A DNA stretch of 64,000 nt from Heterodontus francisci (Eukaryota). Location: contig NC_090401.1 of the NCBI RefSeq assembly GCF_036365525.1, forward strand, positions 31,083,036-31,147,035, written 5' to 3'. Under the pieces are notes generated by a model that was not told where the DNA came from, made no database searches, and saw only the letters and a program-made list of their open reading frames with translations. Below, piece after piece: positions 13,833 through 62,752 of this stretch. Position numbers and translations under genes: made by a program. Numbering within the stretch: position 1 is the first letter of the stretch; the number at the start of each line of letters is the position of its first letter.

Positions 13833-13837
13833 GTGGT

Positions 13838-17240: not shown

Positions 17241-17399
17241 AATGTGTCTTTCTCCATGAACTGTAATTAGGAGTATGGTATTAAACTAACAATTATAGGA
17301 CTATTCATAGGAATTGTTTCAATTGTAAGGCACAATTCCAAGTATTTCCCATTTCCCAACCCATTGCACATTGAATCATTAATAATGGTAATTTCCTGT

Positions 17400-20031: not shown

Positions 20032-20408
20032 ATTGGTATTAAATTCAATGGTGCACTTACAGGATCCACAGAACACTTGCCATTTCTATGAAATGTAGTC
20101 ACAGAACTGAATGCCTCCATTCACCCTGTGGTCAGTTATAGAATGACAAAATCTGGGGCTGAAACAGTGTAGAATGTTTCACCCAAAACTAATTAAGAAG
20201 ATTGCTAACAGGGCATCTGGGTATTAGCAAAAGGATAGAACCACCTATACTAAAATTAAAAGTATTTTCAATTACTGGATTTATTTTGAAACCCCAACCT
20301 AGAGAATATTCAACAGGTACTAACAGAATGCTACTTCATTTCCGGCCCAAGTAAATCCTCAGGAGCTGCCTAACTGCGGAGAATCTACTTTAAAGCAGCA
20401 TGCTGAAT

Positions 20409-23400
20409 TTAGGGCTCATCTTCAGAACTCTGAATAAGCTCTTTAGCAGCACAGCCAGTGGCAGCACCAGCACTTCCTACTATAGCAGCACCAGCAGTAG
20501 AGAGTCCAGCAGCTCCTTCATGAAGAAAAGAACATATATTAATCCTTACAAATATGTAGCAATATTTAGAACACATTCGTTAAACTTTATAAAACTGCCT
20601 CCATTCCCACTCTGAGAGAATCTGTTTATCCTGTGCTATGAACCATTCTTCAAAAAAAATAAAATGCACAGCCAAGAAACTATTCAGGCCTTTGATCTTA
20701 TTTATTTTATTTATTGATTTAGAGATACAGCACTGAAACAGGCCATTCGGCCCACCGAGTCTGTGCCGACCAACAACCACCCATTTATACTAACCCTACA
20801 GTAATTCCATATTCCCTACCACCTACCTACACTAGGGGCAATTTACAATGGCCAATTTACCCATCAACCTGCAAGTCTTTGGATGTAGGAGGAAACACCC
20901 AGCAAAAACCCACGCGGTCACAGGGAGAACTTGCAAACTCCGCACAGGCAGTACCCAGAATCGAACCCGGGTCCCTGGAGCTGCAGTGCAAACCACTGCG
21001 CCACTGTGCTGCCCTTGCTAATATAAAGGCTGCTGAGTAAGTCTTCTCTCCTGAATGGCCATCCAGTTTTCCCCTAATTTGTGCATTAAAAAGTTATTTC
21101 AAAATACAAACTACAGAATAGAGCTTTTTGTAGTGACTTTGCTGATCAGTTTCACTCTATATTAAACAAACATAGCAGCACCAGAGTTTTATTATGACAC
21201 TAGTTCACCAATATTAGCCATTTAAGCAATCACTATCTCACCCACAGCCAAGACTGATAACTTCCTGTCTGAGAAACCACGGAGCCCTGCCCCCACACAA
21301 ACTTCACCACTTTCTATGTTTATACATGGAAGGATGACTTAAAGGTGTTGGACAAGTGATTACATTAAGATCAATCTTCATAACTTTTCCTCAATTTGAT
21401 TTAAAAGAAAACATGGAATCTTACCAATAGACTGGAGGGTTGCGACAACACCACCAGCTGCTACACCCCCTCCATTAGCGACTGCAGCCACAGACATCAT
21501 TTTTGCTCCCAAGGATCCAGCTGCTATTCCAGCACCAGTGAAGCCAGCTGCTCCAACAACAACTGGGGCAGCAACTACTGCAGCAGCTGCAAAAATAGAA
21601 TAAAGTCAGTTGATAAGGGAACTAAAAATTTGCTTGGTGATACAGCACCCCGTTTAGGCTCTTGGCTGTAGAGATCACAGCTCCAACAAATCCAAAAATG
21701 GCATGGGAAGAAATGGAGCAAAGGGGTTTGCCATGACCCTGGCAGCCTTTCAAAAAGAAAGGAGCATGACCTTCAGTTAGCAAGAGTATAAATTACACCA
21801 TGATGTCTTTGTTTTAAAAGAGCACATCATCATGTCACATGTTTGCATTTTAAAGTTGCAAATTTGAAAAAGAAAGGTGACTTTGCAATGAAATACTCAA
21901 CCCTGATACTCAGAATGGACCATAAAAAACGTACAGCACAGGAGGCCATTCAGGCCATCATGCCTGTGCTGCCTCTTTGAAAGAAAAGTCATGCTTAGTT
22001 CCACACCTCCACTTATTGTCCATAACCTGCAAGTTCCTCATCCTCAACTATCTGTCCATCTCCCTTTTAAAACTATTTATGGAATTAGCTTCCACCGCCT
22101 TTTCAGACAGAGCATTCCAGATTCCCACAACTCAGTGAAAAAAAAAATCTCTCCTCATCTTCCCACTAGATCTTTGGCCAATGATTTGAAATCAATGACA
22201 TCTGGTTATTAACCCAATATTTTTTTCTACTTTATTTGCTTCTTTAACCACCTTATTAACTTGCCCTGCCACCTTTATGAATTTGTGTATATGAACAACA
22301 AAGTCTCTCTGTTCATCTACACTCACTCAATCTAGGCTGGCAATTTAGTGCAGTGCTAAAGGACGGATGAATTGTCAGAGATGCCATTTTTCCAAGGAGA
22401 TGTAAAACCAAGCTGCCATCTGCTTATTCAGGTGGATGCAGCAAAAGATGCCATGGCACTTTTTGAAGAATAGCAGGAGTTCTTCTGGTGTTCTGGGCAA
22501 CATTCCTCAATCAGTAAATACCACTGAAAATAGATCATCTAGTTATTTTTTCCATTTGCTGTTTGTTGGACCATCCTGTGCACAAATTGGTTGCCACATT
22601 TCCTGACAGAGCAGCAGTGACTGCACATAATCAAGCAATTGTGAAGCAATATCGGGACATCCTGAGAAGGTGTATATCAATGCAATTTCTTTTACCTGCT
22701 CCTCCTGCAACCCAGGCAACTGTCGACCAATCTATAAATACATGGGCAAAACAGAAATATTAGACAAGTATTCAACGGTGAGACAAGCCACTCATTTGAT
22801 AACTTTCTTGACTGCTAAGTCAGTAATGTAGGAAAGCAGTCAAGTTACAACCAGCATTTTATTAGTTTGCAGACTACTTGTGTAATTGTTTCCTCTCAGC
22901 ATGAGCACTAATAATGTCAGGGGCACATTCATATACAATCCTACAGATCCCAAGCTCAAGGGTCCCTGCTAAATATGGGGGTCCCTCCAGGGTTAGCAAA
23001 CTATGTCCAATAAGCATCTCCCTGTCCACAATCCCATTGGACAAGAAATCTCCTGGCCACGCCCATGAGTCTCAGTGCTGGAGAGCTGCAGTCCAGTTTT
23101 CTCCTTTCAGGTAGGTTTTAATGAATGGGGATGAGGGGGGAGGGAGTTGTTCAGGGTTGCTGAAGGACCCTAAAGAGCCCTAAGAATTCTTAATTGGTCT
23201 CTGATTAAGCTATTTTTATATTACTTACTTCTAGGCTATTGGCACCAGTTCTCAGGCAGCTGAAGGCAACAGTGTAGCCTTGCCGGAGTTGCAAAGGCTG
23301 GTGATTGGGAGGACCTGGTTTTAAGAAAAATGCCTGCACTGGGTCATTTTCTATCAAGTTCGTGGATGCAAAAATAACTGGGAGTGTCCATCTGACACTT

Positions 23401-24707
23401 TCCCAATGCAGTGAACAATACTGGTTTAGAAGGAAAAAAAAGTGGTTAAGTGTTGCATTCCCCCAGCCCTGCGATCTCAAACCTGACAGAACACACGAAA
23501 ATGAAAAACCATTCAAGAAAAATAGTTTCTCTTAGCAACACAATTAATGGTAGTTTACAATCACTATGGATTCTATGGACACACAGTATGGAAAAGAGGG
23601 AAGAGATATGAGGAAGAGGATGAGTAGAGGAGAATGGGGGTTACCTATATCACATGAAGGTAGGCTTGAACCTGCAAAACAGGGAAGATAACAGAATGAG
23701 AACATTTTATTTTATTTTTGTCTTTTAAAAATATATTTCTTCTATACACCCAAAATCATCTCACGTATCATTGCTCACAACGTCAGAGGATACCAACTTG
23801 CATTTATATATCATCTTATCAACTTCAAAATGACCAAAAGCATTTTATGATCAATGAATTACTTTGGAATTGCACGGGTATTTAGAGAAAAGTGTATAGA
23901 AAATTGAAAACTTTCAATATAATTTACATAGCTAGATGGACGTATCTCCACTATGCCCTTTGCATATGCTCAAGAATAGTTAAATATTCAAACAAAATGT
24001 GCTTCAAAATAGTTTAGCACACCATCCCATATTTTTAATCACTATAAATCCCAACTGGGATATTTGGTGATTTCTTCTGCACTATCTGTGCCAGATGTAA
24101 TTGATGTTCGATGATTCTATGTTATTCCAGGTAACATGAAAAGTTTGATATCTCACTTTTCCCCTCCATCTTGATTCAATCATGCCTGACTGCTGTCTGC
24201 CCCTCAAACATTATGCTTAACACTGTTCCATCAAGAATCCTAAGCTTTTGAACTGTGCTCATAATCTCAGTCAACTGGTAGAATTGCTAAATGTACTGTT
24301 TCTTTTTAAATGGTAAAGCAGCTTCAACTGTTCTTTTCTGGACTTCAGCGGTTTCCTTCTAGTCACTTGCCAATAATTTGTGAATTCTCCTTTTCACCAG
24401 CTGGGTCTTTCCTTCCAGCTTTAGTGTTCAGTCTTTGCGATCCAAAGTTTAAAGTTACCTACTCAGAGTTCACAGACTTATTTGCCCATTCTATACTTAT
24501 CAATGTATTGAGACTTTATTGCTTACCTGTTTCCAATAAAAACTAACTTTTTTACAAAAAAGGGAGAAGATTCAGCAAGATTGTAGAGAAAGGCCAGGCA
24601 TAAATTTGCAAGTATTTGAAATGAATCAACATTACCACATAAATCTACTTCTCACCTGTGTTGAAAGAAGCAGACAAGATCAACGCAATATAGACCAGCT
24701 CTCGCAT
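20409..24707 (-). CDS. Gene B copy 1: ISG12/Ifi-6-16 family protein with signal-peptide-like N-terminus and acidic tail (IFI6-like), 127 aa, spliced
   Basis: Exons 24707-24656 ([17 protein letters not shown]), 23671-23645 (GSSLPSCDI), 22731-22696 ([12 protein letters not shown]), 21586-21425 (162 nt, [54 protein letters not shown]) and 20515-20409 ([35 protein letters not shown]). All GT-AG, phase 1; total 384 nt. AATAAA at 20280-20285. The last two exons are secure; the upstream micro-exons are inferred. Confidence 0.82.
20698..21014 (-). mobile_element. tRNA-derived V-SINE (HE1-like) in the last intron of gene B
   Basis: Minus-strand head GGGCAGCACAGTGGCGCAGTGG (A box) ... GGTTCGATTC (B box), V-domain-like core, CR1-like tail and AT-rich end. 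Confidence 0.85.
22335..22690 (+). mobile_element. Deu-domain SINE in a gene B intron
   Basis: atgccatggcactttttgaagaatagcaggagttcttctggtgttctgggcaacatt...tgctgtttgttggaccatcctgtgcacaaattggttgcc. Confidence 0.7.
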
Positions 24708-24981
24708 TTTTCCAATATTTTCAAGGAAGACTGATACAAGTATTGTAGATTTCAGTAATAGCTGGAACACAATAGGACCTTCCTGCACAGATCAACACAA
24801 GAAGCAATTTCAATTAAAAAGGTTACGAGGGAAGTACTGACAGTGCTGTGTAATAACCTCATCTGGTAGCAGATTTATAAATTACAGGTAGAGATGGTTC
24901 AAATTGTTATCGGAAAAGCTCGGTTTCATGTTTTGTCTACAGTAATCTTCAGTGAAATTATAATTCTTCACTCTTAAAATG

Positions 24982-25773
24982 TGTTACAACCAAGTGAGAA
25001 ATGTGTCCAGGGGTCTGTTACTATCTTCATCTGGTCTTATTGCAACAGGGTTTAATTTTAAACACGGTTTTGATCTCCCCTTTGTGAATCCGTGTTCACA
25101 ACTTTCCAACTATAAGGCAAAGAAATGAGCACAAACAGGCTTTCTGTGGTTTAACGAAGAAAGATGAAATTTATTAAACCTTAAACTTGAACTCTAATAC
25201 AGTTAACACCTACGGATATACAAATACCCACGCAATACACATATGCAAATAGAGACAGAAAAGAGCAGAAGAAAAGATAAGTAGAACAGTTTGAGACAAT
25301 ATCTTGTTACAGTTTCTCGAGCTCGCTGTAGTCCTTGATTGAATATATGGTCTTGTGTTTCATTGGGGCCCAGTATTCTTCGTAAACCTTATTCACATAG
25401 GAGATTCTGAGTTTACGTATCTTCACAAGATTCAGTTCTGTGGGAAAAAGAGATCGAGGCAGGCAGACAGGAGAGGAAGTAATTCTTGCTTCAGTTCCAG
25501 AAGAGATCTTCACTTCATGAGCACAGAGCTTTGTCTTTTCAAAGTTTTGCGTTTCCAGTTTAAAGCTCCCCTGGTTGGCCAGCAGGTGGTCACGTGACCG
25601 ATTGGTTTGACCAGGTCTCTTCCGTGCATTGGGGCAGGGACTGGTTCCTTTGTTTCAACACTGTCTGCTACTATGCAAATGTCCTTCCAGTCAGGGCTTG
25701 CAATTTTAAGTTATTGTTCAAGTGGTGAAATAATGTGTGCCTCAGTCTTGGCAGGTGGGGGGTTTGCCTGATA
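24982..25773 (-). mobile_element. Solo LTR with 4-bp target-site duplication in gene B intron 1
   Basis: aatg|tgttacaacc ... cctgata|aatg; same family as 19191-20031. Confidence 0.75.
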
Positions 25774-25914
25774 AATGATTGTAGATAAAAACTTTATTCT
25801 TAGTAGGTTACATCAGTGACTAGTTCTAATAAACATGTAGTCATGTAGCTGCTGTCAGAGGTGGTGTTTCCTTATGCATTCCTGAGATATGGGAAATGCT
25901 GGAAAAGCTGAATT

Positions 25915-26985
25915 TTTAATACCCATCGCTAGTTGCCCCAAGATTCTTCTCCTTGAATCATTGCAGTCCTTTTGGTGAGTTTTTCCAAAATGGTGTAGGG
26001 AATTTCAGGATTTTGATCCAGCAACCATAAAGAAATGGTGGATGTACATCCAAGTCAAGATGGTATTTGACTTGGAGGGGGAAGGTGTTCCCATACTCTT
26101 GCTGCTCTTAACTTTGGTAAAAGTGCTGTTGAAGTAAGCTTGCAAGTTGATACAATGCAACCTTTAAATCATACATATTGCAGTCACAGGGTTCTGGTGA
26201 TTAAAAGGGTGGATATTGAATTCAATGCCCAAGGACCGATCAAGCAGACCACTCTGTATTGGATAGGTTAAGCTTTGAGTGATAGTGCAGATGTATCCAT
26301 CACAATTGACTTTGTAGTGAAGAAGCACTGGGGGGCCAGCAGGTGAGCCAATTATCAGTGTACCCATCTTCTGTTCTATTCCTGCAGCCATGGCATTGGT
26401 ATGGTGGGGCCAGTTAGGTTTCTGGACAATGTTGATAACATTAAATGTCTTACTGGAGATGGTCATTACTTGGCACATAGTGGTGTGAATATTAGCCCGT
26501 CTGGATATTATCCAGGTCCTGTTGCAAGCTGGCATGACCTGCTCTTTGAGTTGTGAATGAAGCTTAAAATCGTACAATCGACAGCCCCATTCCTGACCTG
26601 ATAAAGGGAAGTAGCTGAAGATGGTTGGGCTGAGGACACTTCACTGAGAAAGCCCTGGGGCTGCAATGATTGGCCTCCAACAACATGAGCCTCTTTCTCA
26701 GTTTCAAATATAACCTCAGCACCACATTCCCACCTACCCCCGATAACCTTTCACCCCTTGCTCAAGAATCTATCCACCTCTACCTTAAAAATATTTAAGG
26801 ACTCTGCTTTCATCGCCTTTTGAGGAAGAGAGTTCCAAAGACTCACAACCCTCAGAGGAAAGATTTCTCCTCATCTCTGTCTGAAATGGGCAACCACTTA
26901 TTTTTAAGACAGTGACCCCTAGTTCTAGATTCTTCCACAAGAGGAAACATCCTTTCCACAACCACCCTGTCAAGACCCCTCAGGA
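25915..26985 (-). mobile_element. Degenerate CR1-clade LINE fragments
   Basis: 25915-26700 resembles 9260-10260. 26720-26985 encodes CPFQTEMRRNL, a CR1 3' end. Confidence 0.65.
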
Positions 26986-27993
26986 GTTTAACTGCACATC
27001 TGCTCCATGCCTGACATTGCTGTATCATTTATGTATAAACAATGGGGAGTATTATTAGCGTCACATTTTGATAGCAAATTATGGCCTATTATGTTGCTGA
27101 GATTCTTTCTCATCTCCTTTTCTGTATATATCTCCTGGTGTGAATAGCTACCCGAAACCTACTTGCCGATTTTAATTTTATTCCTGTTTTACAAGATTCC
27201 TTTTTAACCACCCTGCCCAACTGCAGTCACTCCTTATCACCTGTCAGTATCTTGATCCATTACCAATTCCAAACAAGTTTTTTTATTTCACTTACAGCTG
27301 GTCCCAATGGTGAACTATTTCCCCTGTTGTGCCCAATGCTCACCTCGGAGACTGAACACTTCATAACCTGTGGCATTTACTAATCTTTACAAGCATTTCA
27401 ATGGTCCCCAATTCTACTATCCTTTCCTTCATCTCCATGACTTGCAAACATTCATAGATACTCGAGCTAACTCCCCACTCAATGACAGGACCGATGCCAC
27501 AATCCACAGCTCCCTATTCTTTCCTTTGTTCACTAGATTCTCAAATATATTTGAACAATTCATAAAAAGAAACCTCGTCCATTAACTAGTTTCAACCAAT
27601 TTAATCTGTAGACGGTTTTCATCTTATTCTGAAACTTGTTACTATCCATCAACATATTTTGTTATCCGATTTAAGCCAATGTCTGACCTGCACAGTATCC
27701 GCAGAACATGAAATGAATGGGTTAACACTTCTGCAAAAAGTGCGGAGAGACTCATTTCAGGAAAGGGACAGTGGCTTGTCTCATAGCTGAAAAAGAAATG
27801 CACCTGGAAGAGTGTTACTGCACCAGCCATCAATATCACACAAGTAACAGAAATACAATGGTAATTTATGAATATATTGGTGTATATGTGCAATAATTTT
27901 AAATGCTTATTATAGAAAAGTAATATCGCTAAAAATGCAAACTGTAGAATAGCTACACTGCATCAAATTTCTTTGAACTATCCTCTATATTAC

Positions 27994-28110
27994 CTGATAT
28001 ATGTTGGAGTTGCCTAAAACCAAACAGAACTTCACTCGGAACAACCTGACACACAGCGCATTGCAGAATATATAGCAAACTGAGAGGAGTCTCCTGGGTC
28101 CTAATGCTCA
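27994..28110 (-). promoter_or_regulatory. Gene B non-coding exon 1 and core promoter
   Basis: Donor cag|gtaata at 27994/27993. TATA-like sequence (minus strand TATATATT) at ~28067-28074. Homologous to the gene A promoter and intron-1 start. Confidence 0.6.
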
Positions 28111-28280
28111 ATAAGTTCAACATGTTCAATTTTCAATCCACCTCGATCTATTTTTTTTGCAGCAAGAACAGTCTCCCCCAGTATTTTATAACTGTAGTTT
28201 AGAACAGAAAGCCGAGGGACATCACCTTTTTTTTTCACTATTAATTTTTAACCAAGGCGCTGAAGAGTCTGTAGATTCAA

Positions 28281-28341
28281 GAAATGGAAACTCCATTATC
28301 AGTTTTGTTTCCTCGGAAATCCACATGATGTCACTGACAGC
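28281..28341. promoter_or_regulatory. ISRE cluster upstream of gene B copy 1
   Basis: GAAATGGAAACT (28281-28292) matches the ISRE consensus GAAANNGAAACT. AGTTTTGTTTCC (28301-28312) has one mismatch. Overlapping TTC-N4-GAA (ttcctcggaa) and TGATGTCA at 28326-28333. About 200 bp upstream of the TATA-like box. Confidence 0.75.
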
Positions 28342-29051
28342 TCTTCAGCAGAAGCTTTTAGAAATGCAACAACGTTTAGAGATTTAAAACTTTAGAAGGT
28401 GTATGTATGTTGGAGACAGTTTTTAATTTGCCGCACTGATCTGAAACTAAAGTTGTGGATCAATGATGTCAATAGAAATGAAAACCAGGCAGTTTCAATA
28501 ACACTGGCAGATCGGCAGTGTTAGATTTACACCCAAGTGGCAAATTGAGAATCAACCCCATTGTGTGTGAACGGGATGTTGGAAACCAGTTGTTCTGACA
28601 GCAAGGAGGCCGACAGCTCACTGGATTCAGGCTGGCCCAACGTTGGCCACTGGAGACCGCTGGGCCTGCAGCAAGTTAATCCCAGTAGATTGTCGCAATG
28701 GGGATGGAGGGCTGCCCAGTGGCAGTGGCCCGGAAATGGGTGCCGTTCCCTTCTGCTACATGGTTGGCAACCCCACTGTGGATCACGTGTGGCGGGCGAC
28801 CATTTTACATAGTAGAGGCAGAGCCCCCCACCACCCCCCCTCCAAATCACATGGCGGGGCGGGATGCGAGCAGTCAGTTACACCATCAGATGACTCTGGA
28901 GCAGGTACTGCTGCCATATTTAAAGGCCTGCCAGCCCTGCATTCACACCTGTTTTGGAGTTGTTTGCAGCTTTCAGTGTGCTGCTGAAAATGGTGTTGGA
29001 TTGACTCCTGGATGACCACCACCCCCCAAACTCCCGAGGAGGACACACAAG

Positions 29052-30797
29052 ATGGCTGAGCCAAGACACAGGATGGACCCAGGGTTTAGTGGTGCCTCCC
29101 TGCAGATTCTCCTCCAGGCTGCACGGGAAAGGAGGGAGGTCCTCTTCCCCAGCGATGGCAAGAAGAGGTCCTCTCCCCTGACCAAGCAAGCCTGGACCGA
29201 AATAACAGAGGAGGTCAGCAGCTGTGGGGTCACCCAACACAACTGGGTGCAGTGCCGAAAGAGGGTCAATGACCTCCTGCGTTTGGCCAAGGTGTCTGCT
29301 CCATAACTCTCTATTACTGAGTGTAAGTGGCTATGCAGGAGGATGTGGGGCATGATGAGGGTGGCACAACCACAGTGATGGCAGAGGGGGTAAGGCATCA
29401 CTACATCCTGACAGATGCATGGCTGCATGTTGGCCACAGGCCACCTTCTTTCACAGCTCACCCCCCATTAACTCCCCTGAGAGCGGATGGGAGCATGAGC
29501 TATATGTGATGCCCCAATAGGAGACAAGGGGCTGACACTAGCAGAACTGTCATGTTGATCTCTCTGCGAATTCTTACTATCTCTCTCTTTCCACTTGCAG
29601 GACAAGAGGTCCCACAACAGGAGAAAGATGGCTCAGTCTGGCAGAGACCTTCCAGATCTACGGCCTCTCACCCCAGCCGAGGAAGAGGCCTTGGAATTGT
29701 TAGGGACCAAGGGCAGACACACCATATCAGATCGAGAGACTACAGTCTCTACACAAGAGAGTGAGGCTTGGCTTCCATCAACATACGGATCACTTCTGGA
29801 GACACACATCACTTATGGTGGACATGACGAGATCTGCACAGAATAATCCACATGTTTATGTTCTCTCAGGCAAGTCGGCGGTCGCAGGAGATTCAACCAG
29901 AAGGGGGACAGCCATCCACCTCTGAGGAGGAGGAGCACTCCGAGGATGAACTGTCCCATGACTTTCCTGCACCTTCCACCAGAGCAGAAACCAACACCTC
30001 AGTGGGTTTCTGCTTGGCTGTAGAATCAGGGTCACTAATTGGTGAGAGCACAGCATACGTACCTGAGCAGCTAGCTGAGGCTGAGACAACCGAGGACACT
30101 GATAGTCGGATCTGGCCAGGCCCATGCTGAGCCCCAGTCTGATGATGAGCCTATGGTATTGTCAGCACAGGGCATACTTGAGTTCCAGAGAGAGTAAGGC
30201 AACATCTGGCGGCGATGCCAGAGGCTATGAGTGGACGATGGAGGAGTCCATCCGTGCTATGACTGCTGCCATGTCTCAGGCGTATGAGCACATGGCTTCT
30301 CCATCGAGAGGTTGGCGACCCTCATGGAGGGCCAGATCCTACAGATGCGTGCAGACTTTCACACCACCGCGTTGGCCATGAACTTGATGCAGCAGGGGCA
30401 AGGCAAGAGAAGGACAAGGCGCCTGGAGTCTTCTCCATCTCCTGCTCCTTCTCTAGTGAGCAGGGAGGTTCAAGTTAACCTTGAAAGGGAGAAGGAGAGG
30501 CTGACATCCGCAGCTGGGGGCTCCCCTCAGGGCGCTCTGATTGTGGACACCGGCTCCTCAGCCCCTCTGCCAGTGAGACCAGCTCCAGCAGCCTTGAGGC
30601 GTGAGGAGGGTTCTGCACCAGTGCAGGAAACCTCCTGGCAGCAGGGGCCCTCCAGGCCTCAGGCAGCCAGAGGACAGCCACCAAAGTCATCACAGGCCAT
30701 GGGGCAGCTTGATCAGCAGCCTGCCTCCAGCCCAGCAGCTAGCGCAGGGTTCACACCTCATTGGAGCACCCACAAACACGTTAAGAAAACCACATAG
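29052..30797 (+). pseudogene. Harbinger Myb/SANT-like (trihelix, MSANTD/NAIF1-type) DNA-binding protein, spliced and degenerate
   Basis: Exon 29052-29291 (FSGASLQILLQAARERREVLFP...KQAWTEITEEV...NWVQCRKRVNDL). Exon 29601-29760 (NRRKMAQSG..LTPAEEEALELLG). Third exon from ~29870 with an acidic region and frameshifts. Confidence 0.8.
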
Positions 30798-31129
30798 CTA
30801 CACTTGAGGATTCATGACTGTCAGAAATTTTACGTATTGATTAATTAAAAGTTCATTTGCTCAAATCATTAATGATCATTATGTGAAAGCCATTTTCCAT
30901 TAGGCCTTAATTGTGATCTGCTGACATTCCCCTTCCCCATTACTGAAATGCCTATTTAACTACAGTCCTCATTAACATATGTTCTCCCATGGGCACAATT
31001 GTGATTTGCAGCTGAGCGCAAATCAGGGAACACAAATGGAAAGGAGGTGACAGACTACGTGCATCGAGGTGAGGTCTTTCTTGGTTCTCTGCGACTGGGC
31101 ATCAGGAATGCTGGAAGCGGCTGATTGTG

Positions 31130-32552
31130 AGGTTGTCTCTTGCCTCCTTGGCACACAGCTCAATCTGCCTGGCCTCTGGTGCAAGGGCTTCAACATCCAG
31201 CACTGCTTGCTCCTTTCCCTCCTTTGCATCTCATCATCATATATGGCCTCCCGCCTCTGCAGTGCCAGATTGTGCCGAGCACAGCAGACCACCATGATAC
31301 GCGATACTCTCACTGGGACATACTGCAAGGCTCCACTGCATCGATCCAGGTACCAGAATCTCATCTTCAGCAGCCCAATGGCCTACTCAATGATCACTCA
31401 GGTGGAGCTATGGCAAGTGTTGTACCTCTCCTCTGCTGCAGTGCGGAGGCTGTTCAAAGGCATCAGTAGCCATGTCTTTGATGGGTAGCCCTTGTCCCCG
31501 ATAATCCATCCCTGAGGCGAGCGGGGTCCTGAAAAGCTGTGCACCGGGACTGTAGACGTGTGTAAGCATCATGGCTGCTTCCCAGGAAGTGGGCACACAC
31601 CAGCAGGAAATGCTTTCCTGTTGATTAAGGCAGCTGGCTGGTCCGTGGGAACATTGATGCCCATACGCGAGCCGTCTATCACAACTTACACCGACATAAA
31701 TCCAGTGTTGGCCCCGAACCTGATGGCCCTCTTGTCCTGACTGTCAGTGTTGATCTGGTAGTTCATATAGTCACCGGCTCTCTTGAACAGGGCATTTGTC
31801 ACCTCCTTGATTAAGCCAATGGGCTTCTGCCTGGGAGACCCCACACATGTTCCCGATGGAACCTGGAAAGATCCAGCTGCAGAAAGTTTTAGTGCCATAG
31901 TGATCATCAGGGCCATTGGCATAGGGTGACCCCCCCGCAAATCCCATAGATCACAACTCAACCTACAGCTGTGCATTAGTCTGTGATGGACTCCCTGAAG
32001 AGCCGTAGTCTTCACTGAGAATACCGCACGGAAATTTGGAGGTGGCTGATTCGAGACTGGTACACTCTCTTGTGCAGGTGGGCCCTTCTTGGCATGGCCA
32101 GCTTCTGATGCTCCCATCGAGGAGCTTCACGGGCAGGCACAGCTGACTCTTGGCCCTCCCTCCATCCGAGGTGCTGTGTCATGCCATGGTGGTCCAAAAT
32201 TGACAGGGTGTATGAGACTCATGCCAGGTAACCTGTGGGCCACCAGAGCACTGTTGATGCAGAGACAACCCTGCCTTGGCAACTGAGCTTTTGACAATTC
32301 TCCTCGTGGACTCCGTGATAGTCCTCAGTACCCACCCTGCTGATAGTCGACCCTCTCATCAAGCAGCAAGGACGACCAAACATCTCTCACAGCAGTTTGG
32401 TTACCCAATACAGCCCCCGCAAACCCAAGCCCAAGCGCATCCCTCTTGCAGAGCCCCCGAGACCCCAACTCCGCCCCCCTTGCTGAGCATACAGCAACAT
32501 AGACTGACAATGTCCTCCGAACCCCCCTCTTTCCCGCTGCAGCATTGTTCAT
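31130..32552 (-). pseudogene. Harbinger (HARBI1-like) DDE transposase, disrupted
   Basis: Motifs across frames: VIDGSRMGI..NRKAF, GSSHDA, GDKGYPSKTWLLMP, IIE*AIGLLKMRF (TAG at 31383-31385), LDRCSGALQY..VCCARHNL. Multiple frameshifts. Confidence 0.88.
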
Positions 32553-34254
32553 AGCTGCCTCCCTGTCATGGCACTGAGGCCTCTCGCATCGTTGTGGCCG
32601 GTGTTTTAACTGTCGTGAAACCGAAGCCGCCCGCTGTCCACTAAATCAAGAGCCAATCTTTAAAATCGAGGTTAATTAGATGTAAATGCATTACAAACAA
32701 CTGCTCAGCAATTTAAAATAGATTCCTGTCATATCAGGGCAGTAATGCTGCCTTGGTCCTTTCCTGCCGCTGGCAAAATCTGGGACCGTTGTCACAACAC
32801 TGGATTTCCGGATGGATGGTTCTGATGCGATTCTCTGTTCCCCCATGCCACCACTCCCACTTTAAAGGGCCGCATTAAATTCTGCCCATGGTGACAGTCA
32901 TTGCAGCTGTGTTGTGTTTCAATGATTCAATGTCAGTGCATTATTGCAAGCCGTGGCTTGAATGTATGCCCCATTGGAATATAGTGATGTGAGGCAATGA
33001 GAGTTGCAAGCTTGCCTGAAGGTGTGGCACGGATGCATAGTGAAGGTGGAATAGGTCAGCTTGCAGCACCTTGTTACATGCAGTATTTTGCCATCAACTT
33101 GGTTCATGGTACTGTGGTTTTACCTTGAAGATTCCTTCAACTATTGAGCCTTCTCTATGTTATTCTGGGGTGTTTAAGATATTGTGCAGTGTTGAACCTG
33201 TCTGCCACCATCTCCATACCATACCCATACATCAGCAGGGCACACATTCAAGACTAAAGGATAGGTTCCAGAGATGTGTTCAAAGTTGTGCTAACGTCTG
33301 CCTGTAAACCTAAGAATGCATTTTGATGACCTCAGCAAATGACATTTGATGGGGTGAAATTCGCCTTGGTCTAACAGTATGGATCTAGAACCTCTTTCTT
33401 GCCAAACATTTGGCTTAAACCAGCATCTCATTAGCACAAATTGCTCTCCCAGTCACTCTGACTTCCCCCTAAGTATGAGAGAGAAGAAGAGAATTGATTG
33501 GAAAAGTTAACACAGGCACGGAGCCAATAGAATGGGTGTTTGAGGCATGCAAGTGCTGAAATGATTAATCTACTCGCTTCCCAAGTCTTGACATTCCATC
33601 ATTCAGTTATCTGCCCATTCTACATGAGATAAGGAGATAATAAAATGGAAGTTTTTTTTTAAAAGCTTGGATGTTAAAAAAAAAACTTACTGATTGGCAG
33701 TAACCCAAATATAATGTGAAGAGGATTCCAGTCTTTAGAAACAAGCAAAGGAACTTCTGTGTCTTAAAAAAATAAACACAAGTACAAATACATCTCAAAC
33801 ATGAAAACTCTTCAACTAGGATCTTAAAACAATCCATCGGTTTGAAAGAAGTTTACCTGGCCATTAAAGCAACCATGAGATTTTCAAAATTGTACATAAC
33901 AGGGTGTACTCCTGTAACACACAATTTAGTTAAAGGCAAAAAAAAAAGTCAGAAGTAAATGTAAAAGAAAAACTGATACAATTGCTCATTAATCCAGAAT
34001 AGAGATAGTGAATGTTTCATGGCTAGAATTTTGGCTTGAAACGGGGTGTAGTTGACGATGATGGGAGATTAAAACCTACTGCCAGAGCTTAACTGCTGCA
34101 TAATATCTTTCACACTGCTATATTCTGAAAGGCAAAACAGTCACAGAGAAAAGACATAATATTCAGAGCCTTTATTTATTTTCAGTCAGATTCTTCTTCA
34201 TATACAGCATGTAAAGGAAAGATGTTCATTATTTTCAGTTGTCTTAAGGCACTT

Positions 34255-45280: not shown

Positions 45281-45400
45281 CTGTTGTATTTTGTAGTTGT
45301 CCAATGTCAAACTTGAACGTCAGCTGTTCTCTATTGGCAGCAGAAGCGGCTGTGCAGAAAATATAGTAAACTGAAAGAAGTCCGCTGGGCCCTAATGCTC
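45281..45400 (-). promoter_or_regulatory. Gene A copy 2 non-coding exon 1 and core promoter
   Basis: Same sequence as 13713-13832. Confidence 0.6.
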
Positions 45401-45914
45401 GTGGTGTGGAACTCAGTCATTGAGTATGTTTAAAGAAGAGATTGACAGATTTCTAAATATCAATGACATAAGGGTATATGAGGATAGTGTGGGAAAAACA
45501 CATTGAAGTGGATGATCAGCCAAGATCGTACTGAATGGCGGGGCAGGCTCAATGGGCTGAATGGCGGGGCACTCTACTTGGTATTTGTGTTGGAGGATCA
45601 GGGGAAACCATTTATTTTGGTATTGCACAACACTTCTGACTACTATTTACAGTGGCAGACTCTCATATAAATAGGGAACTTGTTGCTTATGTATGCATGA
45701 CTCAGGCGTGAAAGTTACAACTTCACTGAAGGTCCCTGGACACAATTTCAGAAAGTGGCAAGAGAAAGTGAGAAAAAAAGTCAGAGTTAAAAAGAAATTC
45801 AAAACCAAGGCCTGAATTTAACCTGGACGACAGGGGTCCCGGTGACAGGCTGGAAGGGGACAACCCCACCTTGGCCCTGTTTTGAACCCCCATCCAAATT
45901 CCACAACGGGCGTG

Positions 45915-46769
45915 AATTGTGTTTGATCGGAGGTAAATGATCTGCATTATACAAAGAAATCACAAAAGATAGAAACTTATATGACCCAAAGAAAATACAT
46001 ACAGGAAAATCACCAGAAAAATACAAGAAGAAAGAAGCAGAAAATATAAAGTGTGACAAGATCCTTGCGATTCTTTAGCACTCTTGAGACTGAGTTTTAT
46101 GGGCTCCCTCTGGATGGGAACGTAGGCGGTGGAGTGCCCGTCGCCTTCCTGACCCCTTGGCATTTAGTCCAGGCAGCCATTTAACTGCCTGTAGTCAGGG
46201 TCCCTTTAAAGACCCTTTAAGGATGGTGATCTCTTCCACAAGAGCTGCTGGCTAATCAGAGGGCTGACAGCTCAGTAGTAATGGCAATGCCACTGGAAAC
46301 AGTGGCCACTGCTGTTACTACAGGAAGACCAGGACCAGGACCAGCGCTGGAGCCCCGGACCACAGGTGAGTGTGGTGGGCTCGCCAGGACAGCAGGAAGA
46401 GGCCCTTAAGTTAATTGGCCACTTCAAGGCATCAATTGGCCCCTGGGCGGGAAGGCTCTCCTTGGCCTTCCTCGCCCTTGGACTAAAGTCCAAGGTGTTG
46501 GGAAGGCGACGGGTACTCCACTCCCCGCCTACCCATGCAATTTTATTGACCCCCTCCCATCTCCATTCCCATCCCGAGGGGGCCCATAAAACTCAGCCCC
46601 ATGAGTGCTAAAGAATAGCAAAGATCTTGTCACTCCTTATATTCTGTGCTTTCTTTTTCTTATATTTTTCGGAGATTTTCCTGTATGCATTTACTTTGCA
46701 TCACATAAGTTTCTATCTTTTTTGATTCCTTTGTATAATGCGGATCATTTACCTTGGATCAAATAAATT
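45915..46769. repeat. Long imperfect inverted repeat (~170-bp arms) enclosing the MITE
   Basis: 45915-46086 aligns with the reverse complement of 46600-46769 (tttgatc..ggtaaatgatc.gcattatacaaag..gatagaaacttat..catacaggaaaatc..gtgacaagatc..ttctttagcactc). Confidence 0.85.
46087..46599. mobile_element. MITE with (GGG)CTGAGTTTTATGGG TIRs (right part lost in copy 1)
   Basis: Left end agactgagttttatgggctccctctggatggg versus right-end reverse complement gggctgagttttatgggccccctcgggatggg. Confidence 0.75.
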
Positions 46770-47930
46770 GCTGCACTTTTCTTGATTCCTTCCCACCAGT
46801 GTGGGTACCCAGGATGGTACCGTGGTCTAAGCAGTATCTTCCAAAAGTTTAGCATTACTTTACTTTGTTCCTCTCTGCCCCTGTACATAAAACATGAAAT
46901 AAATGTTTCTGGCCCCTCTCCCACCCCCAATAACCATACAATTCATTCCTTGCCCTCTCCCCCTACAGAATACTTACCTGGCGTACCTGATCTTCCCCCT
47001 CCACTTTTCATAAACTGTGAACTTTACCCCTTCCCAGAAGCCCCTACACCAATTAGAGAAGTGTGACCCTTTTCCACCAACTCCCCCCGCACTGAAACCC
47101 TTACCTGCTCCCCCACTCCCCACCAGTGTTACACCTCGTATCCCCAGATGGGGATCTGAAGGTGCTGGAGTGCCAGCCACTGGCAGCAATATTGCTACAG
47201 AGCAGGGACGGCAGGAGCAGGTAAGTAATTAAATTGTTGATTACAAAAATTTAAATATTGAAATTTTGAACCCTTGCCAAGCGGTGGGGGGCCACCACAA
47301 GACCTCGCCACTGCTGGCAATATGAGGCCAGACCTTCCCGACGTCGAGGCCCCTGGCGGGCTTCTCCCGGAGGCAATTTCCAGTATCCCCCGCCATGACC
47401 CCCGATATCGATGGTGCTGTAAAATTCAGCCCAAAGAGTGGGCAGCAGGTGCTTATATAAATCATCTCATCACATCTTTACCTACTCCGTTATGATGACA
47501 AATGTCCTTGGGGGAAGAATACAAACCATGTCCTATGTCATTGAGTTATATCCCTCAACAAAACTATCTGGTGGCATTTGCACTTTGCCTGCTCGTGATG
47601 CTCTCAAATGTCTCGTTATATGACAAGTCTGTGTAGGCCAAATAAAAACTAAGAGAAAGAGAAACAGACCGGGGAAAGAGTAAGAAATACAGCGGGAAAG
47701 AAAAAAGTCCAATGGGTCTGGAAAAATGAGAGAGATGCAAAGATCAGGTGGCAGAGGACTTCTGGGCAATACCACAGGAGATCAAAGTACAAAGTACTGA
47801 AACTTTCCGGTGAACCCAGACCTGCGGGGATCCTAGAAAATATACAGAAAAAACAAACTACCGGATAGTTGGCAACTTGTGTATTTACACTATTTACTAA
47901 ATTTAAAGTGACGCTGTCAACCTGGAACGG

Positions 47931-48034
47931 GGAAATGAAACTGATCTTCAGTGTAAAATCTGATCCCTTCAAGCTGTTAGTGATGCAATCCGATTTCTGA
48001 AGAAACGAAACTGAATCCATGTAGTTTCAATGTC
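47931..48034. promoter_or_regulatory. ISRE cluster (putative interferon-responsive enhancer) present only in copy 2
   Basis: GAAATGAAACT (47932-47942) and AGAAACGAAACT (48001-48012) both match AGTTTCNTTTC on the minus strand. Degenerate AGTTTCAATGTC at ~48023-48034. 47970-48035 aligns with the reverse complement of gene B's ISRE block. Confidence 0.72.
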
Positions 48035-48639
48035 CTGTTCAAACAGTGGAGATCACACAATGAAGTAAAGTTCATTTTTACCGCCATGTTTACTCTCTAA
48101 ATTTGCTCTGTGGTTGCAGTGTTTAAGGAGCTGGCCTGATTCCAGCTTGTTGAAAACAACAATTCCTGATTTAACACTTCAACGATTTCTTCCCTTTGCT
48201 GGAGAGTGAGCTGCAGAGGAGAGAAAAAGAAACAAGAAAGGGGAACAAAACAAGAAAGATAGAAAAGAAAAGGAGATAAACAGTCATCTTCACACTGCAC
48301 TGAATGCTGTAGTACAGAGTCCATTTTCATGCCATGCAATATTGATATCATTGATAGACACTAATGGTGTGACTGTTAATGATTCAATAGTTCAGATAGT
48401 TAGCTCTTATCAACCATTCAATTGTTACTGGTAATAGGGCAAAGCACTAGTCTATTTCCAGCTTTAAAATGGAGGGAGAGAATTTCCAAAGGGCTGGATG
48501 ACCTCCCCCCCACCCTCTCGATGGACCCCACCCGCCACCCCCCCCCCCCACCACCCGCCATACTGGGGCCCAGCCAATTGACCCAGCGAGGCCCCACACA
48601 CTTACCTTTTCTGATTAAGAACTGATTAAGATCATCCAA

Positions 48640-49130
48640 AGCTCTTCTGCTGAGGTCCTAACTCACACCAAGTTCCGTTTGCTCATCATCCCCATGCTCA
48701 CTGACCTAAATTGGTTCCTGGTTAAGCAACGCCTCGATTTTAAAATTCTCATCCTTATTATCAAAAGCCTCCATGACCTTGCCCCTCCCTAGCTTTGTAA
48801 TCATCTCCAGCTCTAAAATCCTCTGAGACATCTCTGCTCCTCCAATTCTGGCTTTTTGTGCATTCCTGATTTTAATCACCCCCACCACTCGTGGCCGTGC
48901 CTTCAGCTGCCTAGGCCTTAAACTCTGGAATTCGTTCCCTATATCTCTCTGACTCTTTATCGCTCTTTCTTCCTTCAAACCTACTTGTTCGACCAAGCTT
49001 TTAGTCATCTGCCCTAATATCTCTTTATGTGGCTCAGTGATGTCAAATTTTATTTGATGACACTTCTGTGAAATCCCTTGGGAGGTTTTATTTTGTTGAG
49101 GGAGATATATAAATACAACTTGCTGTTGAT
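48640..49130 (+). mobile_element. L2-clade LINE 3' end (only the last ~90 bp survive in copy 1, at 14851-14940)
   Basis: L2-like C-terminal coding remnant (LTDLNWFLVKQRLDFKILIL) and tail ctgtgaaatcccttgggagg...tatataaatacaacttgctgttg. Confidence 0.75.
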
Positions 49131-52100
49131 GAGTTGCATATTTTGGACTTTATTTGTTCCTGGTTTAACTTCAAAGGACTTTTCCAAATCTTCTGACACA
49201 GAGTTGCAGGAGGCTTCAGGGACAGTGGGGTCACAATTCCCATATAAAGTTATTGCCAAAGCATTATTTTTAGCACAGGATTGTTCCTGTTACTTTCTGC
49301 AATTGAAGAATAATAAATATTTTCTGATAGCTTAGTTTAGTTTAGTTTAGTTTAGAGATACAGGACTAAAACAGGCCATTCGGCCCACCGAGTCTGTGCC
49401 GACCATCTGCCACCCAATAGTGCCCTATGGATCAAATAAAAGCAAAATACTGCGGATGCTGGAAATCTGAAATAAAAACAGAAAGTGCATCTGTGGAGAG
49501 AGAAGCAGAGGTAATGTTTCAAGTCTGTGACCTTTCTTCAGAACTCAAGAGCCCTATGGATCTCCACTACTAACAATCCCTTACCAGAGCTTTTCCTATT
49601 TATTATCATTTTCTGCTTCCTGTTGTTTAGCCAGATTTCAGTCCAACTTTCAATGCCTATTTAGCATTTATTCTATGAAGCTTAATCTTACAATGTGAAT
49701 TTTATCAAGTCCCTCTGAAAATTCAAGCAGATTATATGGTTGATTCCATGATTGGCAACTCCTGGTGAGAAGCAGCACGGGTCAGAAAATCGTGGGTCTG
49801 CAGCCCCTGATTTTCCATCCATTTAAATATTTAAATTAATATACCAGGGTCTGTAAGCCTGTGATTTCCCGAACAGCATGCCCTATAAGTGCCAATTCTT
49901 GCCAGGAGAGCTCAATTGGAGAATCAGTCCTGATATCCATGGGACTGACATCCCAACAACTCAGTTACTTCCTTCAAAAAGTTAGAATAGGTTTGTGAGG
50001 CTCAACCTCATGTTACAAAATCCAAAATACCTGTGGTTTTTGGCCTCCAGGCTTTTCAGATGTTGATAGCATGCTATGCAATGCTTCTGGACACAAAACG
50101 CGATGAAACATACTGTGTTAAAACATTATGCTGCATTACTTGTGTGTGACAAAGTGGCACCGTTTTTCTTCTTTCCCAAAAGTTTGCCAAACATTTTTCA
50201 TGAACTTGTTGCCACTTTAAAATGCAGCTGCTAATTCATGAGTCTGGATGTGCACCAAAAGTGATTGTTAGGAGCAAAGAAATAACGTGAGCAATATAGT
50301 AAATGTTATCAGGTTTGTGCACAACCAGAAAAGGACAGGAGGAAGATCTTCCTCAGCTTGGTCCCAACATCAGAAGAACCCCCAGTGACAACACCCTCCC
50401 CCGCCGCCCACCCCCAAGGAACCAGTGTTAAAAGTTTGATTCTTACTCCACCCTCACAGTTGAAGTTGATAATTTGGTAGCATATCCTTTTCAAATTAGC
50501 GTCAAATAGGTGCTATAAATTCTGCCCACTCAGCCTGTTTAAACCCATTTCACACAAAGACTTCAGAACCAGCAGAGGAGTCTTTCATCCCTTCAGTTTA
50601 GGCCGCATCTAGATCCACAGCACAGAGATGAAATGTGGGTGTTCTGTTCAAAGGTATCGCTGAGTTGTTGCCCCATTTTTGCTTCCTGCTGATTTGGGAG
50701 GTTCGATCCTGAATATTGATATATTTTACTCATCTATATGGATGAATATTAACTCTAATTAGTAAAATAATAACCAGGGAGCCCGCAGTTAATATTTTAA
50801 AGTAATAAGTTGATTTCATGGTACAATGGGCTGAATTGTATTTGGGCAGCACCAGCACCATTTTTAAAGGGCCTTAAGCCCTTCCAAATAATTATAATTT
50901 TTAAAGGGAAAATATAATTGATTTTTATTAAATATAAAAATAAGTGATGGAGGCCTTTCCCCAACCCCCCACAATGGGGGGTTTCATTGCCTGAAATGAC
51001 AATCAATTGATTTTGTCAAATACCCAACGTTTCCCCCCCAACCTTCAATCTTTTGCCCTTCAACTGCATCCCACCATCCTCACGTCCAATAAAAATTGAT
51101 TTCCCCACTCCTCCACACCTCTTGCCTTGAAAATTTTATTCCTCCCTCCTCCCCACCAGGTTCTCACCTCGGAACTCCGCGCGAAGGCCTAACGGAGGCT
51201 GTAAAATCAGCGTGGGACGGCAGGTAAGTTATTTTGCATACATTTATCTGCATATGAAGATTCAGGGCCCGCTGCCAGGCAGTGGGGGGAGCCACACCGC
51301 GGTTCACCCGTTGCTGGTAATATGCAGCGGGCCCTTCTCAACATTGCAGGTCAAGGCGGGCCTCTCCCCACAGAATTTTACGGGTCCCCGCGCCGCGACC
51401 CACAGCATCGAGGGGCCAGAAAAATTCAGCCCAATGTGTCTTTCTCCATGAACTGTAATTAGGAGTATGGTATTAAACTAACAATTATAGGACTGTTCAT
51501 AGGAATTGTTTCAATTGTAAGGCACAATTCCAAGTATTTCCCATTTCCCAACCCATTGCACATTGAATCATTAATAATGGTAATTTCCTGTGTAAATAAA
51601 GACCTTGCATTTATATATCTTTCATGTCTTCAGTATGTCCTAAAACACTTCTCAGCCAATTAATTACTATTTTGAAGCAGAGTCACAGTTCTGCTGGCAA
51701 ATGACAACAAATTAATGCACAGCAAGATCACAAAAACAGCAGTGAGATAAATGACCAGCTATTTTGTTTCAATGTTGTTGGTTTAGGAATGTGTTGACCA
51801 GGACACCAGGAGAACTCCCCTGCTATTTTTCAAATAGTGCCATCATTTTCTTACACCTGAATAACAAGATGAGACCTCGGTTAAAATGTCTCATCCAAGA
51901 GGGAAGCACCTCCGCCACCATGCAGAAATTTCAGCCTAAATTAGGCTCTCAAGTGCTGTAGGGGGTCGGTGGGGGGGGGGGGCGTGGGGGGGGGTGGTGC
52001 TTTCACCTACAGCTGTCTGACTTGGGCATGAGAGGGGCTACCAGTTAACCAAGGGGGCTGGTTTACCATCACCAGTGCATAGGAAACACTTTCCTCCCGC

Positions 52101-53376
52101 ATATGTTTGAGTCTGGTGGTTTTGTCTCTTCAGTCTGTTCTGGATTCAAAGTTGGGTCATTATTGTTCAGTGACATTACTCTGAGCCAATTCACCACCTA
52201 GTGAATCTCCCAAATTAGCAGCTGTTAGTGTTTGTAATGGGTTGACAGCCAGTACAGAATTACTGAAAAAGTGCAAGTGTCTTTCATAAGGTGCTGAACA
52301 TTAAAGTGCACAGATTAAGTGATAATTTAAATATACAGTAACCGAATATAAATGCAGAACTTTAGAGACAAATACTCTAACTTTTCAGAACCCATAATAT
52401 TAAATTGTAAGTCAAGAAGAATAGTCACTCTCCAAGACAGATGAAATAACAGCAGCTTGCATTTGTACAGTGCCTTCAATGTTGAAAAATATTCCAAGGA
52501 GCTTTACTGAGATATAATCACAGCCAAAGAAGGAAAGATTAAGAGCAGACCAAAAGCTTGGTCAAAGAGTTGGGTTTTAAGGGAAAAGAAAACACCAAAA
52601 CAAATGTTATTTAAGGTGTAATTTAATCAAGGTTTGTTACATAAAAGTATTAAGATTTGGTTATTGTGATTTAAAGTATGACATCTTCTCAGATATTCAT
52701 TTGTAGATGCAATGTGTACTTTTATCACCTCAAATCATTCTGACATAAGATATTGCAGATGCAGGGTTTCCCAAGACCCACATGTCAGCCATGAGACTTG
52801 TAGTTTTTGAGCAGTGTACTGTATTTATGAAGTAGCCCCACTCCTGACAAAAATCTCATGCGATACAGTTGAGAACCTTGCAACTCCAGTTATATTTCCA
52901 TGCTTTATGCCAAAGTTACAGGGGAGAGGGGTTTTATGGCAAAACAACAGCAACTTGCATTTATAGAACACTTTTAATGTAACAAATGTTCCCGTGTGCT
53001 TTTACAAGAGCATTATCAGACACCATTTGACACAACCACATAAAAGGACAGCTTGGGGATCAAGGAGGTACATTTTAAGGAGCACTTTACAAATGGGATA
53101 TATACTTCAGCCCAACCCCCAGCAGATAAGATTCATTCTTGGAGTGGACCACAATAAGTATTGGTGTTACGACCAGGTGAGAAAGAGAAACTGGAGATTG
53201 CTGTCAATCTCCCCATGAGCTTCAAGTATTTTCTGCATTTGCACTGTTAAAAACTAATTAAAGTCAGCACTAAAAGTTAGGGTTAGTACTTAACTATGCA
53301 AGGACCCTTTTAATGATTTATGTTCCTGCAATACCACTTAACCTCTCCAGCCCAGAAAGGGAACAGTTGAAGCTAT

Positions 53377-62176: not shown

Positions 62177-62524
62177 CTGATATATGTTGGAGTTGCCTAA
62201 AACCAAACAGAACTTCACTCGGAACAACCTGACACACAGCGCATTGCAGAATATATAGCAAACTGAGAGGAGTCTCCTGGGTCCTAATGCTCAATAAGTT
62301 CAACATGTTCAATTTTCAATCCACCTCGATCTATTTTTTTTGCAGCAAGAACAGTCTCCCCCAGTATTTTATAACTGTAGTTTAGAACAGAAAGCCGAGG
62401 GACGTCACCTTTTTTTTTCACTATTAATTTTTAACCAAGGCGCTGAAGAGTCTGTAGATTCAAGAAATGGAAACTCCATTATCAGTTTCGTTTCCTCGGA
62501 AATCCACATGATGTCACTGACAGC
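62177..62524 (-). promoter_or_regulatory. Gene B copy 2 exon 1, core promoter and ISRE cluster
   Basis: Donor at 62177. GAAATGGAAACT at 62464-62475 and consensus AGTTTCGTTTCC at 62484-62495. Confidence 0.72.
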
Positions 62525-62752
62525 TCTTCAGCAGAAGCTTTTATAAATGCAACAACGTTTAGAGATTTAAAACTTTAGAAGGTGTATGTATGTTGGAGAC
62601 AGTTTTTAATTTGCCGCACTGATCTGAAACTAAAGTTGTGGATCAATGATGTCAATAGAAATGAAAACCAGGCAGTTTCAATAACACTGGCAGATCGGCA
62701 GTGTTAGATTTACACCCAAGTGGCAAATTGAGAATCAACCCCATTGTGTGTG

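Follow-up and report, generated by a model that had tools for sequence, protein, structure and literature searches.

A 2,624-bp deletion removes a predicted interferon-response element pair upstream of one of two near-identical IFI27-like genes in Heterodontus francisci

The 64,000-nucleotide stretch of Heterodontus francisci DNA analyzed here, hereafter the window (NCBI RefSeq assembly GCF_036365525.1, contig NC_090401.1, positions 31,083,036 to 31,147,035 of the forward strand), is spanned by a tandem duplication in which a pair of minus-strand genes from the IFI27/IFI6 (ISG12, FAM14) family, referred to below as A and B, is present in every unit (Table 1). The best explanation of the locus is a real and very recent tandem segmental duplication, in at least two copies, of a two-gene ISG12/IFI27 cassette. 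The sole large difference between the copies is a segment of 2,624 bp carried by copy 2 only, which contains a pair of exact interferon-stimulated response elements (ISREs) upstream of gene A. Regulatory divergence of the duplicates is predicted from this arrangement.

A tandem unit with two ISG12/IFI27 genes

Self-alignment of the window resolved two colinear blocks, 1-14853 matching 31569-46421 (99.72%) and 14850-29817 matching 49042-64000 (99.76%). The copies differ by 62 substitutions (40 of them transitions) in 29,817 bases, a divergence of 0.21%, and by 15 gap columns besides the large indel, mostly in homopolymers. Substitutions are patchily distributed, with 16 within the first 3 kb, identical runs of up to 3,079 bp and a variance-to-mean ratio of 3.6, a pattern that suggests gene conversion or a haplotype mosaic. 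CpG losses numbered seven in copy 1 and six in the other copy, so that no directional excess was seen in copy 1. The 64,000 bases of the window include no N, and no Rfam match to a structured RNA was found in 29818-64000.

The only interval able to hold a junction between two copies, 29818-31568, is covered by a probable degenerate Harbinger/PIF-type transposon, and neither a junction nor a gap is visible within it. The Myb/SANT open reading frame (ORF) of this element scored 39 bits with Myb_DNA-bind_5, over the cut-off, while two of three pieces matched DDE_Tnp_4 with 16.6 and 13.2 bits, under the cut-off of 24.8, and none of the four longer minus-strand pieces gave a match. The transposase remnant keeps a single frame from 31023 to about 32300, across the possible junction. 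Such a seamless join requires recombination between two elements of this kind, or more than two copies. A two-copy array would span 65,760 bp, in which a 64-kb window fits at 1,761 start positions (2.8%), and three or more copies are therefore favored if windows were tiled at random. Putative Harbinger/PIF-type sequence was also observed at 1-1319 and 63199-64000, that is, at the unit boundary, and the boundary element is a candidate substrate of the recombination that formed the duplication.

The gene models are predictions, their 5' exons being predicted from sequence. Exon 3 of A1, A2 and B2 matches Pfam PF06140 (Ifi-6-16) with 76.9-77.1 bits, above the curated cut-off (29.1 bits), the homologues are named IFI27-like, and the spliced ORFs of A and B are intact in both copies, with GT-AG introns. 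Among 18 named homologues, the best matches to gene A exon 3 were those of bamboo shark (45/52) and then smooth-hound (44/51), the domain being highly conserved. The two exon single-nucleotide polymorphisms (SNPs) earlier put forward as markers of the gene A copies, 2693/34262 and 2738/34307, are real and non-synonymous, and account for the two amino-acid differences between A1 and A2 (A78V and V93G). The one coding difference in gene B is silent, and differences are too few for a test; position 21552/55735 distinguishes the gene B copies. Genes A and B, with exon 3 70% identical and 23 of 40 four-fold sites identical, are old paralogues, and both are predicted to be inducible by interferon (IFN).

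The core promoters, non-coding first exons and intron 1 starts of A and B align with a score of 211, against a maximum of 99 in 300 shuffles, which supports the end of gene A exon 1 at 45281. This homology stops exactly where a retroposon 3'-end fragment begins, 92% identical over 156 bp to 36957-37112, which we take to belong to the CR1 family. For its ATG, gene A appears to rely on another exon (42451-42394), without a detectable counterpart in gene B. A relic of gene B exon 2 and its acceptor lies in gene A intron 1 at 44828-44869 (0/200 shuffles) and ends at the position of the gene B ATG. In gene B, a 27-nt in-frame candidate exon near 57828-57854 could extend the N-terminus.

The segment missing from copy 1

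Self-alignment returned exactly the segment, 46419-49042, that a preliminary description of this DNA had delimited, and the about 1 bp of microhomology without target-site duplication (TSD) reported there corresponds to one G common to both ends and no flanking direct repeat. Its polarity, a deletion in copy 1 and not an insertion in copy 2, is likewise borne out. The left breakpoint falls in the loop of a long imperfect inverted repeat, the sole such pair in the unit, whose A-rich arms of ~250 bp are 79-87% complementary (DNA fold z -21.5); copy 1 retains the left arm only, the right arm being gone, and the tail of a long interspersed nuclear element (LINE)-like sequence is cut at the right end. 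An insertion into copy 2 is ruled out by the lack of a TSD, by the continuation of the LINE-like tail over the right end and by the old inverted partner arm that the segment holds; an insertion would need to carry along its own flank as an old and diverged copy in inverted orientation, and the segment was thus lost from copy 1.

The further claim that both breaks cut through repeats stood fully on the right side, where two of the six best-scoring window matches to the severed tail cross the breakpoint convincingly, with 56/79 + 47/85 and 22/33 + 65/99 identical columns to its left and right. The left break lies inside a stretch bounded by terminal inverted repeats (TIRs), and no other copy in the window convincingly crosses it. 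The evidence for these repeats consists of repetition within the window plus TIR and 3-bp TSD anatomy. We take the tail to be L2 and the composite to be a miniature inverted-repeat transposable element (MITE).

The junction shows the marks of end joining, namely a microhomology in the range from none to a few nucleotides, no TSD, unrelated ends and severed elements on both sides, and the 1-nt microhomology suggests that the loss occurred by an end-joining-type event. That the hairpin prompted the break is speculation. Tandem repeats do not account for either breakpoint. All predicted exons and the core promoter are spared by the deletion. A site resembling a gamma-activated sequence (GAS), TTCNNNGAA, lies inside the lost segment at 47031-47039, and another pair of such sites occurs in a repeat of both copies.

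Interferon-response elements lost and kept

Exact matches to GAAAN(1-2)GAAACT, the pattern used in our ISRE search, were found in the lost segment at 47932-47942 and 48002-48012, 2,577 and 2,647 bp from the gene A TATA-like box, and agree in content and distance with the two ISREs that had been described about 2.6 kb upstream of gene A. None of 3,000 dinucleotide shuffles of the segment reached two matches (mean 0.025). The window as a whole holds seven matches versus 0.46 expected (0/100 shuffles), and the non-redundant unit five versus 0.3 expected (0/200 shuffles), four of these five lying inside the modules at the A side and in the gene B promoter. Both lost sites also match exactly, as 47931-47942 and 48001-48012, the fish ISRE consensus (G/A/T)GAAAN(1-2)GAAA(G/C)(A/T/C) (PMC3688568), which has 10 exact matches in the window; three more A-rich matches to it lie in the lost segment at 46648, 47654 and 48222. 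Both lost sites have a 1-nt spacer and consequently depart from the canonical two-half-site form with a 2-nt spacer, GAAANNGAAACT (PMC6954429), the site at 47931 by one mismatch and that at 48002 by more than one. The exact 2-nt-spacer sites are those at 53181 and 62464, and copy 1 retains both.

The preliminary description held the lost pair to be the only clear ISREs near gene A. They are indeed the only exact cluster within 5 kb, but both copies keep a lone exact site (53181 / 18995), which lies 7.8 kb from A2 and 5.2 kb from A1, as well as a site with one mismatch next to the gene A TATA-like box. The latter is weak evidence, since the loose consensus has 1.6 one-mismatch matches per kb. 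The gene B promoter ISREs, which like gene B itself were overlooked in the preliminary description, lie upstream of gene A by 14.5 kb in copy 1 and 17.1 kb in copy 2. Adjoining the lone exact site is the truncated start, at about 53165, of a repeat of ~560 bp, which has two 73%-identical copies at 53377-53933, flanking gene B, and 59165-59686, within it. A further one-mismatch ISRE-like site is found in both copies about 410 bp upstream of the gene B TATA-like box (62657-62669).

Exact sites are grouped in short modules, the pairs being 70 bp apart on the A side and 20 bp apart in the gene B promoter. Reverse-complemented, 47972-48037 aligns to 62461-62525 in the gene B promoter with a score of 45, against a shuffle maximum of 33 (0/300). 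Because pairs of ISREs resemble one another by motif alone, the flanks were also scored by themselves with the shared core fixed; only 12 of 19,825 and 45 of 19,804 random flanks were as good, and the more significant flank was the one without any ISRE. Among 10 ISRE site pairs, only this one extends past the core. The inverted homology gives independent support for the lost ISRE pair. Homology of the module to the gene B promoter in direct orientation was dropped, 83 of 300 shuffles being as good.

Since A and B face the same way, the module upstream of gene A is inverted relative to its own gene, and two repeat insertions make up 1,795 of the 2,572 bp between it and the gene A core promoter. 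Facing the opposite way from the module, promoter alignment detected no promoter relic and tblastn with seven named homologues detected no third ISG12 gene. Out of 24 comparisons for relics or homology, one was clearly significant, the exon-2 relic mentioned above, and another, at 2/200, was treated as chance. We read the A-side module as an ISRE module that was proximal in the ancestor and has since been displaced and flipped, and that would now serve as a distal enhancer or persist as a vestige.

A second change affects the gene B1 promoter module. Position 28306/62489 is T in copy 1 and C both in copy 2 and in the gene A module, and the substitution, one of the 62, alters the core G of a half-site in the minus-strand ISRE. 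As the gene A module has the copy 2 base and the change is a CpG transition, the state of copy 1 is derived. Both ISG12 genes of copy 1 would then carry ISRE damage, A1 by deletion and B1 by substitution. The second change, which the preliminary description had missed, is in line with the regulatory divergence proposed there. In the human OAS3 promoter, losing the better of two ISREs lowered its activity five-fold as an enhancer and two-fold as a promoter (PMC8602369).

Table 1. Features of the locus (window coordinates)
Feature	Position	Strand	Remarks
Copy 1 of the tandem unit (deleted copy)	1..29817		Reaches or passes the left window edge
Copy 2 of the tandem unit (full copy)	31569..64000
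Gene A1	2686..13832	-	Structure like A2; intact ORF; core promoter identical
Gene A2, IFI27/ISG12 family, predicted 94 aa	34255..45400	-	Core promoter and non-coding exon 1 ending 45281; exons 42451-42394, 34910-34749, 34340-34255; PF06140 E 1.2e-21
Gene B1	20409..28109	-	Predicted protein identical to B2
Gene B2, second IFI27/ISG12-family gene, predicted 96 aa	54592..62292	-	Exon 1 ending 62177; exons 61913-61871, 55769-55608, 54698-54592; PF06140 E 9.6e-22
Segment absent from copy 1	46419..49042 (equivalently 46418-49041)		2,624 bp; 1-nt (G) microhomology; no TSD
Deletion junction in copy 1	14850..14851
ISRE-like site 1	47931..47942	+	1-nt spacer; absent from copy 1; no gene B counterpart found
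ISRE module, A side	47972..48037	-	Exact site 48001-48012 and one-mismatch partner 48023-48035; absent from copy 1
Lone exact ISRE	53180..53192 (copy 1: 18994-19006)	+	Kept in both copies; at the edge of a repeat-end fragment
One-mismatch ISRE-like site beside the gene A TATA-like box	45366..45378 (copy 1: 13798-13810)	+	Kept in both copies
Gene B2 proximal promoter module	62461..62525	+	Exact ISREs 62464-62475 (+) and 62484-62494 (-), arranged head to head; TATA-like box 217 and 237 bp away
Gene B1 promoter module	28278..28342	+	Substitution at 28306; other ISRE, 28281-28292, intact
Stretch between TIRs (MITE-like composite)	45809..47432		1,624 bp; between the gene A promoter and the module; severed by the left breakpoint
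Long imperfect inverted repeat	45922..46763		Arms 45922-46171 and 46479-46763; loop holds breakpoint 46418
LINE-like 3' tail	48964..49140		Severed by the right breakpoint
Retroposon 3'-end fragment	45401..45571		Placed exactly where the A/B core-promoter homology ends
Probable degenerate Harbinger/PIF-type transposon	29016..32887		Myb/SANT ORF on +; DDE transposase remnants on -

Regulatory consequence, rivals and precedent

In the course of events that we favor, homology shows that the old paralogues A and B shared one ISRE module, which lies about 220 bp from the TATA box in gene B and inverted 2.6 kb away at gene A, two repeat insertions explaining 1.8 kb of the latter distance. The A-side module would act as a short-range, orientation-independent IFN enhancer binding ISGF3 or IRFs. 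After the duplication, copy 1 lost the 2,624 bp with both exact ISREs, apparently by a non-homologous end-joining-type event starting from the inverted-repeat loop, and gained a CpG transition in one of the two ISREs of the gene B promoter. Copy 1 may consequently have become less IFN-inducible, strongly at A1 and partly at B1. We give an even chance to a real duplication with a less inducible copy 1, in which the changes would represent the early decay of a redundant copy, a simpler account than an adaptive division of labor.

The principle itself is already known, since loss of ISREs in duplicated interferon-stimulated genes (ISGs), with loss of induction, has been published for IFIT genes in zebrafish (PMC3688568). 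Zebrafish IFIT5A and IFIT12D and human IFIT1B are likewise duplicated ISGs, some of them without promoter ISREs, and the zebrafish paralogues without ISREs are reported not to be induced, which favors a loss of inducibility at A1. Those zebrafish and human genes are old paralogues whose expression was measured, whereas the present copies are 99.8% identical, with a lesion mapped to the base and a distal, inverted module, and are known from sequence alone. The attraction of the case is that it is recent, tagged by SNPs and accompanied by a second ISRE change.

Several observations weigh against a less inducible copy 1. The surroundings of A1 keep the exact site at 5.2 kb, the intact ISRE of B1 at 14.5 kb and the one-mismatch site beside the TATA-like box, and the ISREs remaining 5-15 kb away could buffer the loss. 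A random deletion of 2,624 bp would remove the ISRE pair in 15% of the placements that spare exons and in 8% of all placements, and the chance that at least one of 62 substitutions falls in the 20 core bases of gene B is 4%, so that neither change shows selection; that the two fell in one copy is a suggestive observation, though a post hoc one. Under lax gap costs the inverted homology of the modules was not significant (61/500 shuffles, and 233/500 with the ISRE cores masked), an alignment that proved uninformative in both orientations. No homology was found past the 65-bp module, and the ends of the inversion are unmapped. Finally, the A and B modules are identical at 49 of 67 positions versus 23 of 40 four-fold sites (p=0.14), and an intronic comparator at 99 of 147; module identity being not significantly above these neutral comparators, the sequence cannot choose between enhancer and vestige.

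It is somewhat unlikely, yet the strongest of the rival accounts, that both duplication and deletion are real and had little effect, either because the module is vestigial or because gene A is induced through shared elements, such as the gene B promoter acting as an Epromoter, the lone exact site or the TATA-proximal site. Constraint on the module is not demonstrable, the placement of the deletion is compatible with chance and ISREs are kept 5.2, 14.5 and 34.1 kb from A1. Promoters in human ISG clusters can drive neighboring genes, and in K562 cells the closest ISGF3 peak lay in another promoter for 36 of 73 clustered promoters classed as 'induced gene only', the genes concerned being induced with no recruitment of their own (PMC8602369). 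The gene B module has the same anatomy as IFN-responsive Epromoters, for instance that of OAS3, a two-ISRE promoter module with enhancer activity in an ISG cluster; OAS3 was established by reporter assay and chromatin immunoprecipitation in human cells, whereas here the function is deduced and the A-side copy has no detectable core promoter attached to it (PMC8602369). Besides the uninduced zebrafish IFIT paralogues, two facts speak against little effect: the exact ISREs and the partner half-site persist despite A/B divergence at 17 of 40 four-fold sites, and it is the only exact cluster within 5 kb of gene A that was lost.

A doubtful alternative, not considered in the preliminary description, is an assembly artefact, in which two haplotypes of a single-copy locus were placed in tandem and the deletion and the ISRE substitution represent heterozygous cis-regulatory polymorphism. 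Heterotype false duplications likewise show adjacent copies with allele-like divergence and large indels (PMC8081667, PMC9516828). The 0.21% divergence falls within the 0.1-1.1% heterozygosity of vertebrate assemblies (PMC8081667), heterotype false duplications favor more divergent regions (PMC9516828), and the patchy differences are haplotype-block-like, though gene conversion gives the same pattern. No numerical value of shark heterozygosity was found in the passages or Discussion of PMC9826928, whose figures or supplements may hold one. On the other hand, false duplications are mostly separated by gaps (PMC9516828), whereas neither gap nor visible junction exists here, the transposon frame is unbroken across the junction interval, and exactly two copies have only the 2.8% chance given by window placement under random tiling.

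That the module is an alternative upstream promoter of gene A, so that the deletion removed an inducible start site and a 5' exon, is very unlikely: a TATA-like 10-mer identical to that of gene A does occur at about 47835-47844 of the minus strand, some 90 bp away from site 1, and in mammalian IFIT genes the ISRE pairs are normally no more than about 200 bp from the TATA box (PMC3688568), but the AT-rich TATA-like word recurs in the inverted arm at 46037-46048, four comparisons covering 45401-54500 in the two orientations revealed no relic of an A or B core promoter or exon 1, none of them exceeding the shuffles, and a splice scan gave no strong exon near 47800.

Beyond a less inducible copy 1 as early decay, a bolder version, which we regard as improbable, is that the whole ISG12 cassette is being uncoupled from interferon at both genes while 99.8% identical and fully coding, possibly because selection disfavors twice the amount of pro-apoptotic ISG12 protein or favors a copy that is constitutive; the deleted element would then have begun as a proximal promoter module and become a distal enhancer through inversion and the insertion of transposons.

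Tandem ISG12 arrays have precedents in fish. The isg12 array of zebrafish comprises eight genes, six of them highly inducible (10.1101/693333); it likewise combines tandem expansion with unequal inducibility, for which no cis-regulatory cause is given in the text available of that study. Five ISG12 genes lie in tandem in the European sea bass (PMC11899128), where the IFI27L2A/IFI27L2 cluster coincides with a quantitative trait locus (QTL) for resistance to viral nervous necrosis (VNN) and cis-regulatory differences are likewise tied to expression and viral resistance. The sea bass candidates are SNPs in promoters, which are predicted to give rise to KLF15/TEAD4 sites, and the term 'ISRE' is absent from the main text of that report, whereas in H. 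francisci ISREs were lost by deletion between near-identical duplicates. In the literature on shark ISG12/IFI27 promoters or duplications, nothing was found on this locus and no study of ISG12 promoters turned up for this lineage, subscription journals being mostly uncovered.

If the copies are real and differently induced, the locus would offer a clean, base-resolved case of antiviral duplicates losing interferon control before their proteins diverge, and the exon SNPs make copy-specific induction directly testable by RNA sequencing. Regulatory variation in the IFI27 family underlies a major QTL for viral resistance in sea bass (PMC11899128). If the copies represent alleles, the finding would instead be a segregating haplotype with loss of ISREs, together with an assembly error worth fixing. 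Should uncoupling of the whole cassette prove true, the locus would represent a natural, SNP-tagged experiment on promoter-to-enhancer conversion and on dosage tuning after duplication in cartilaginous fish.

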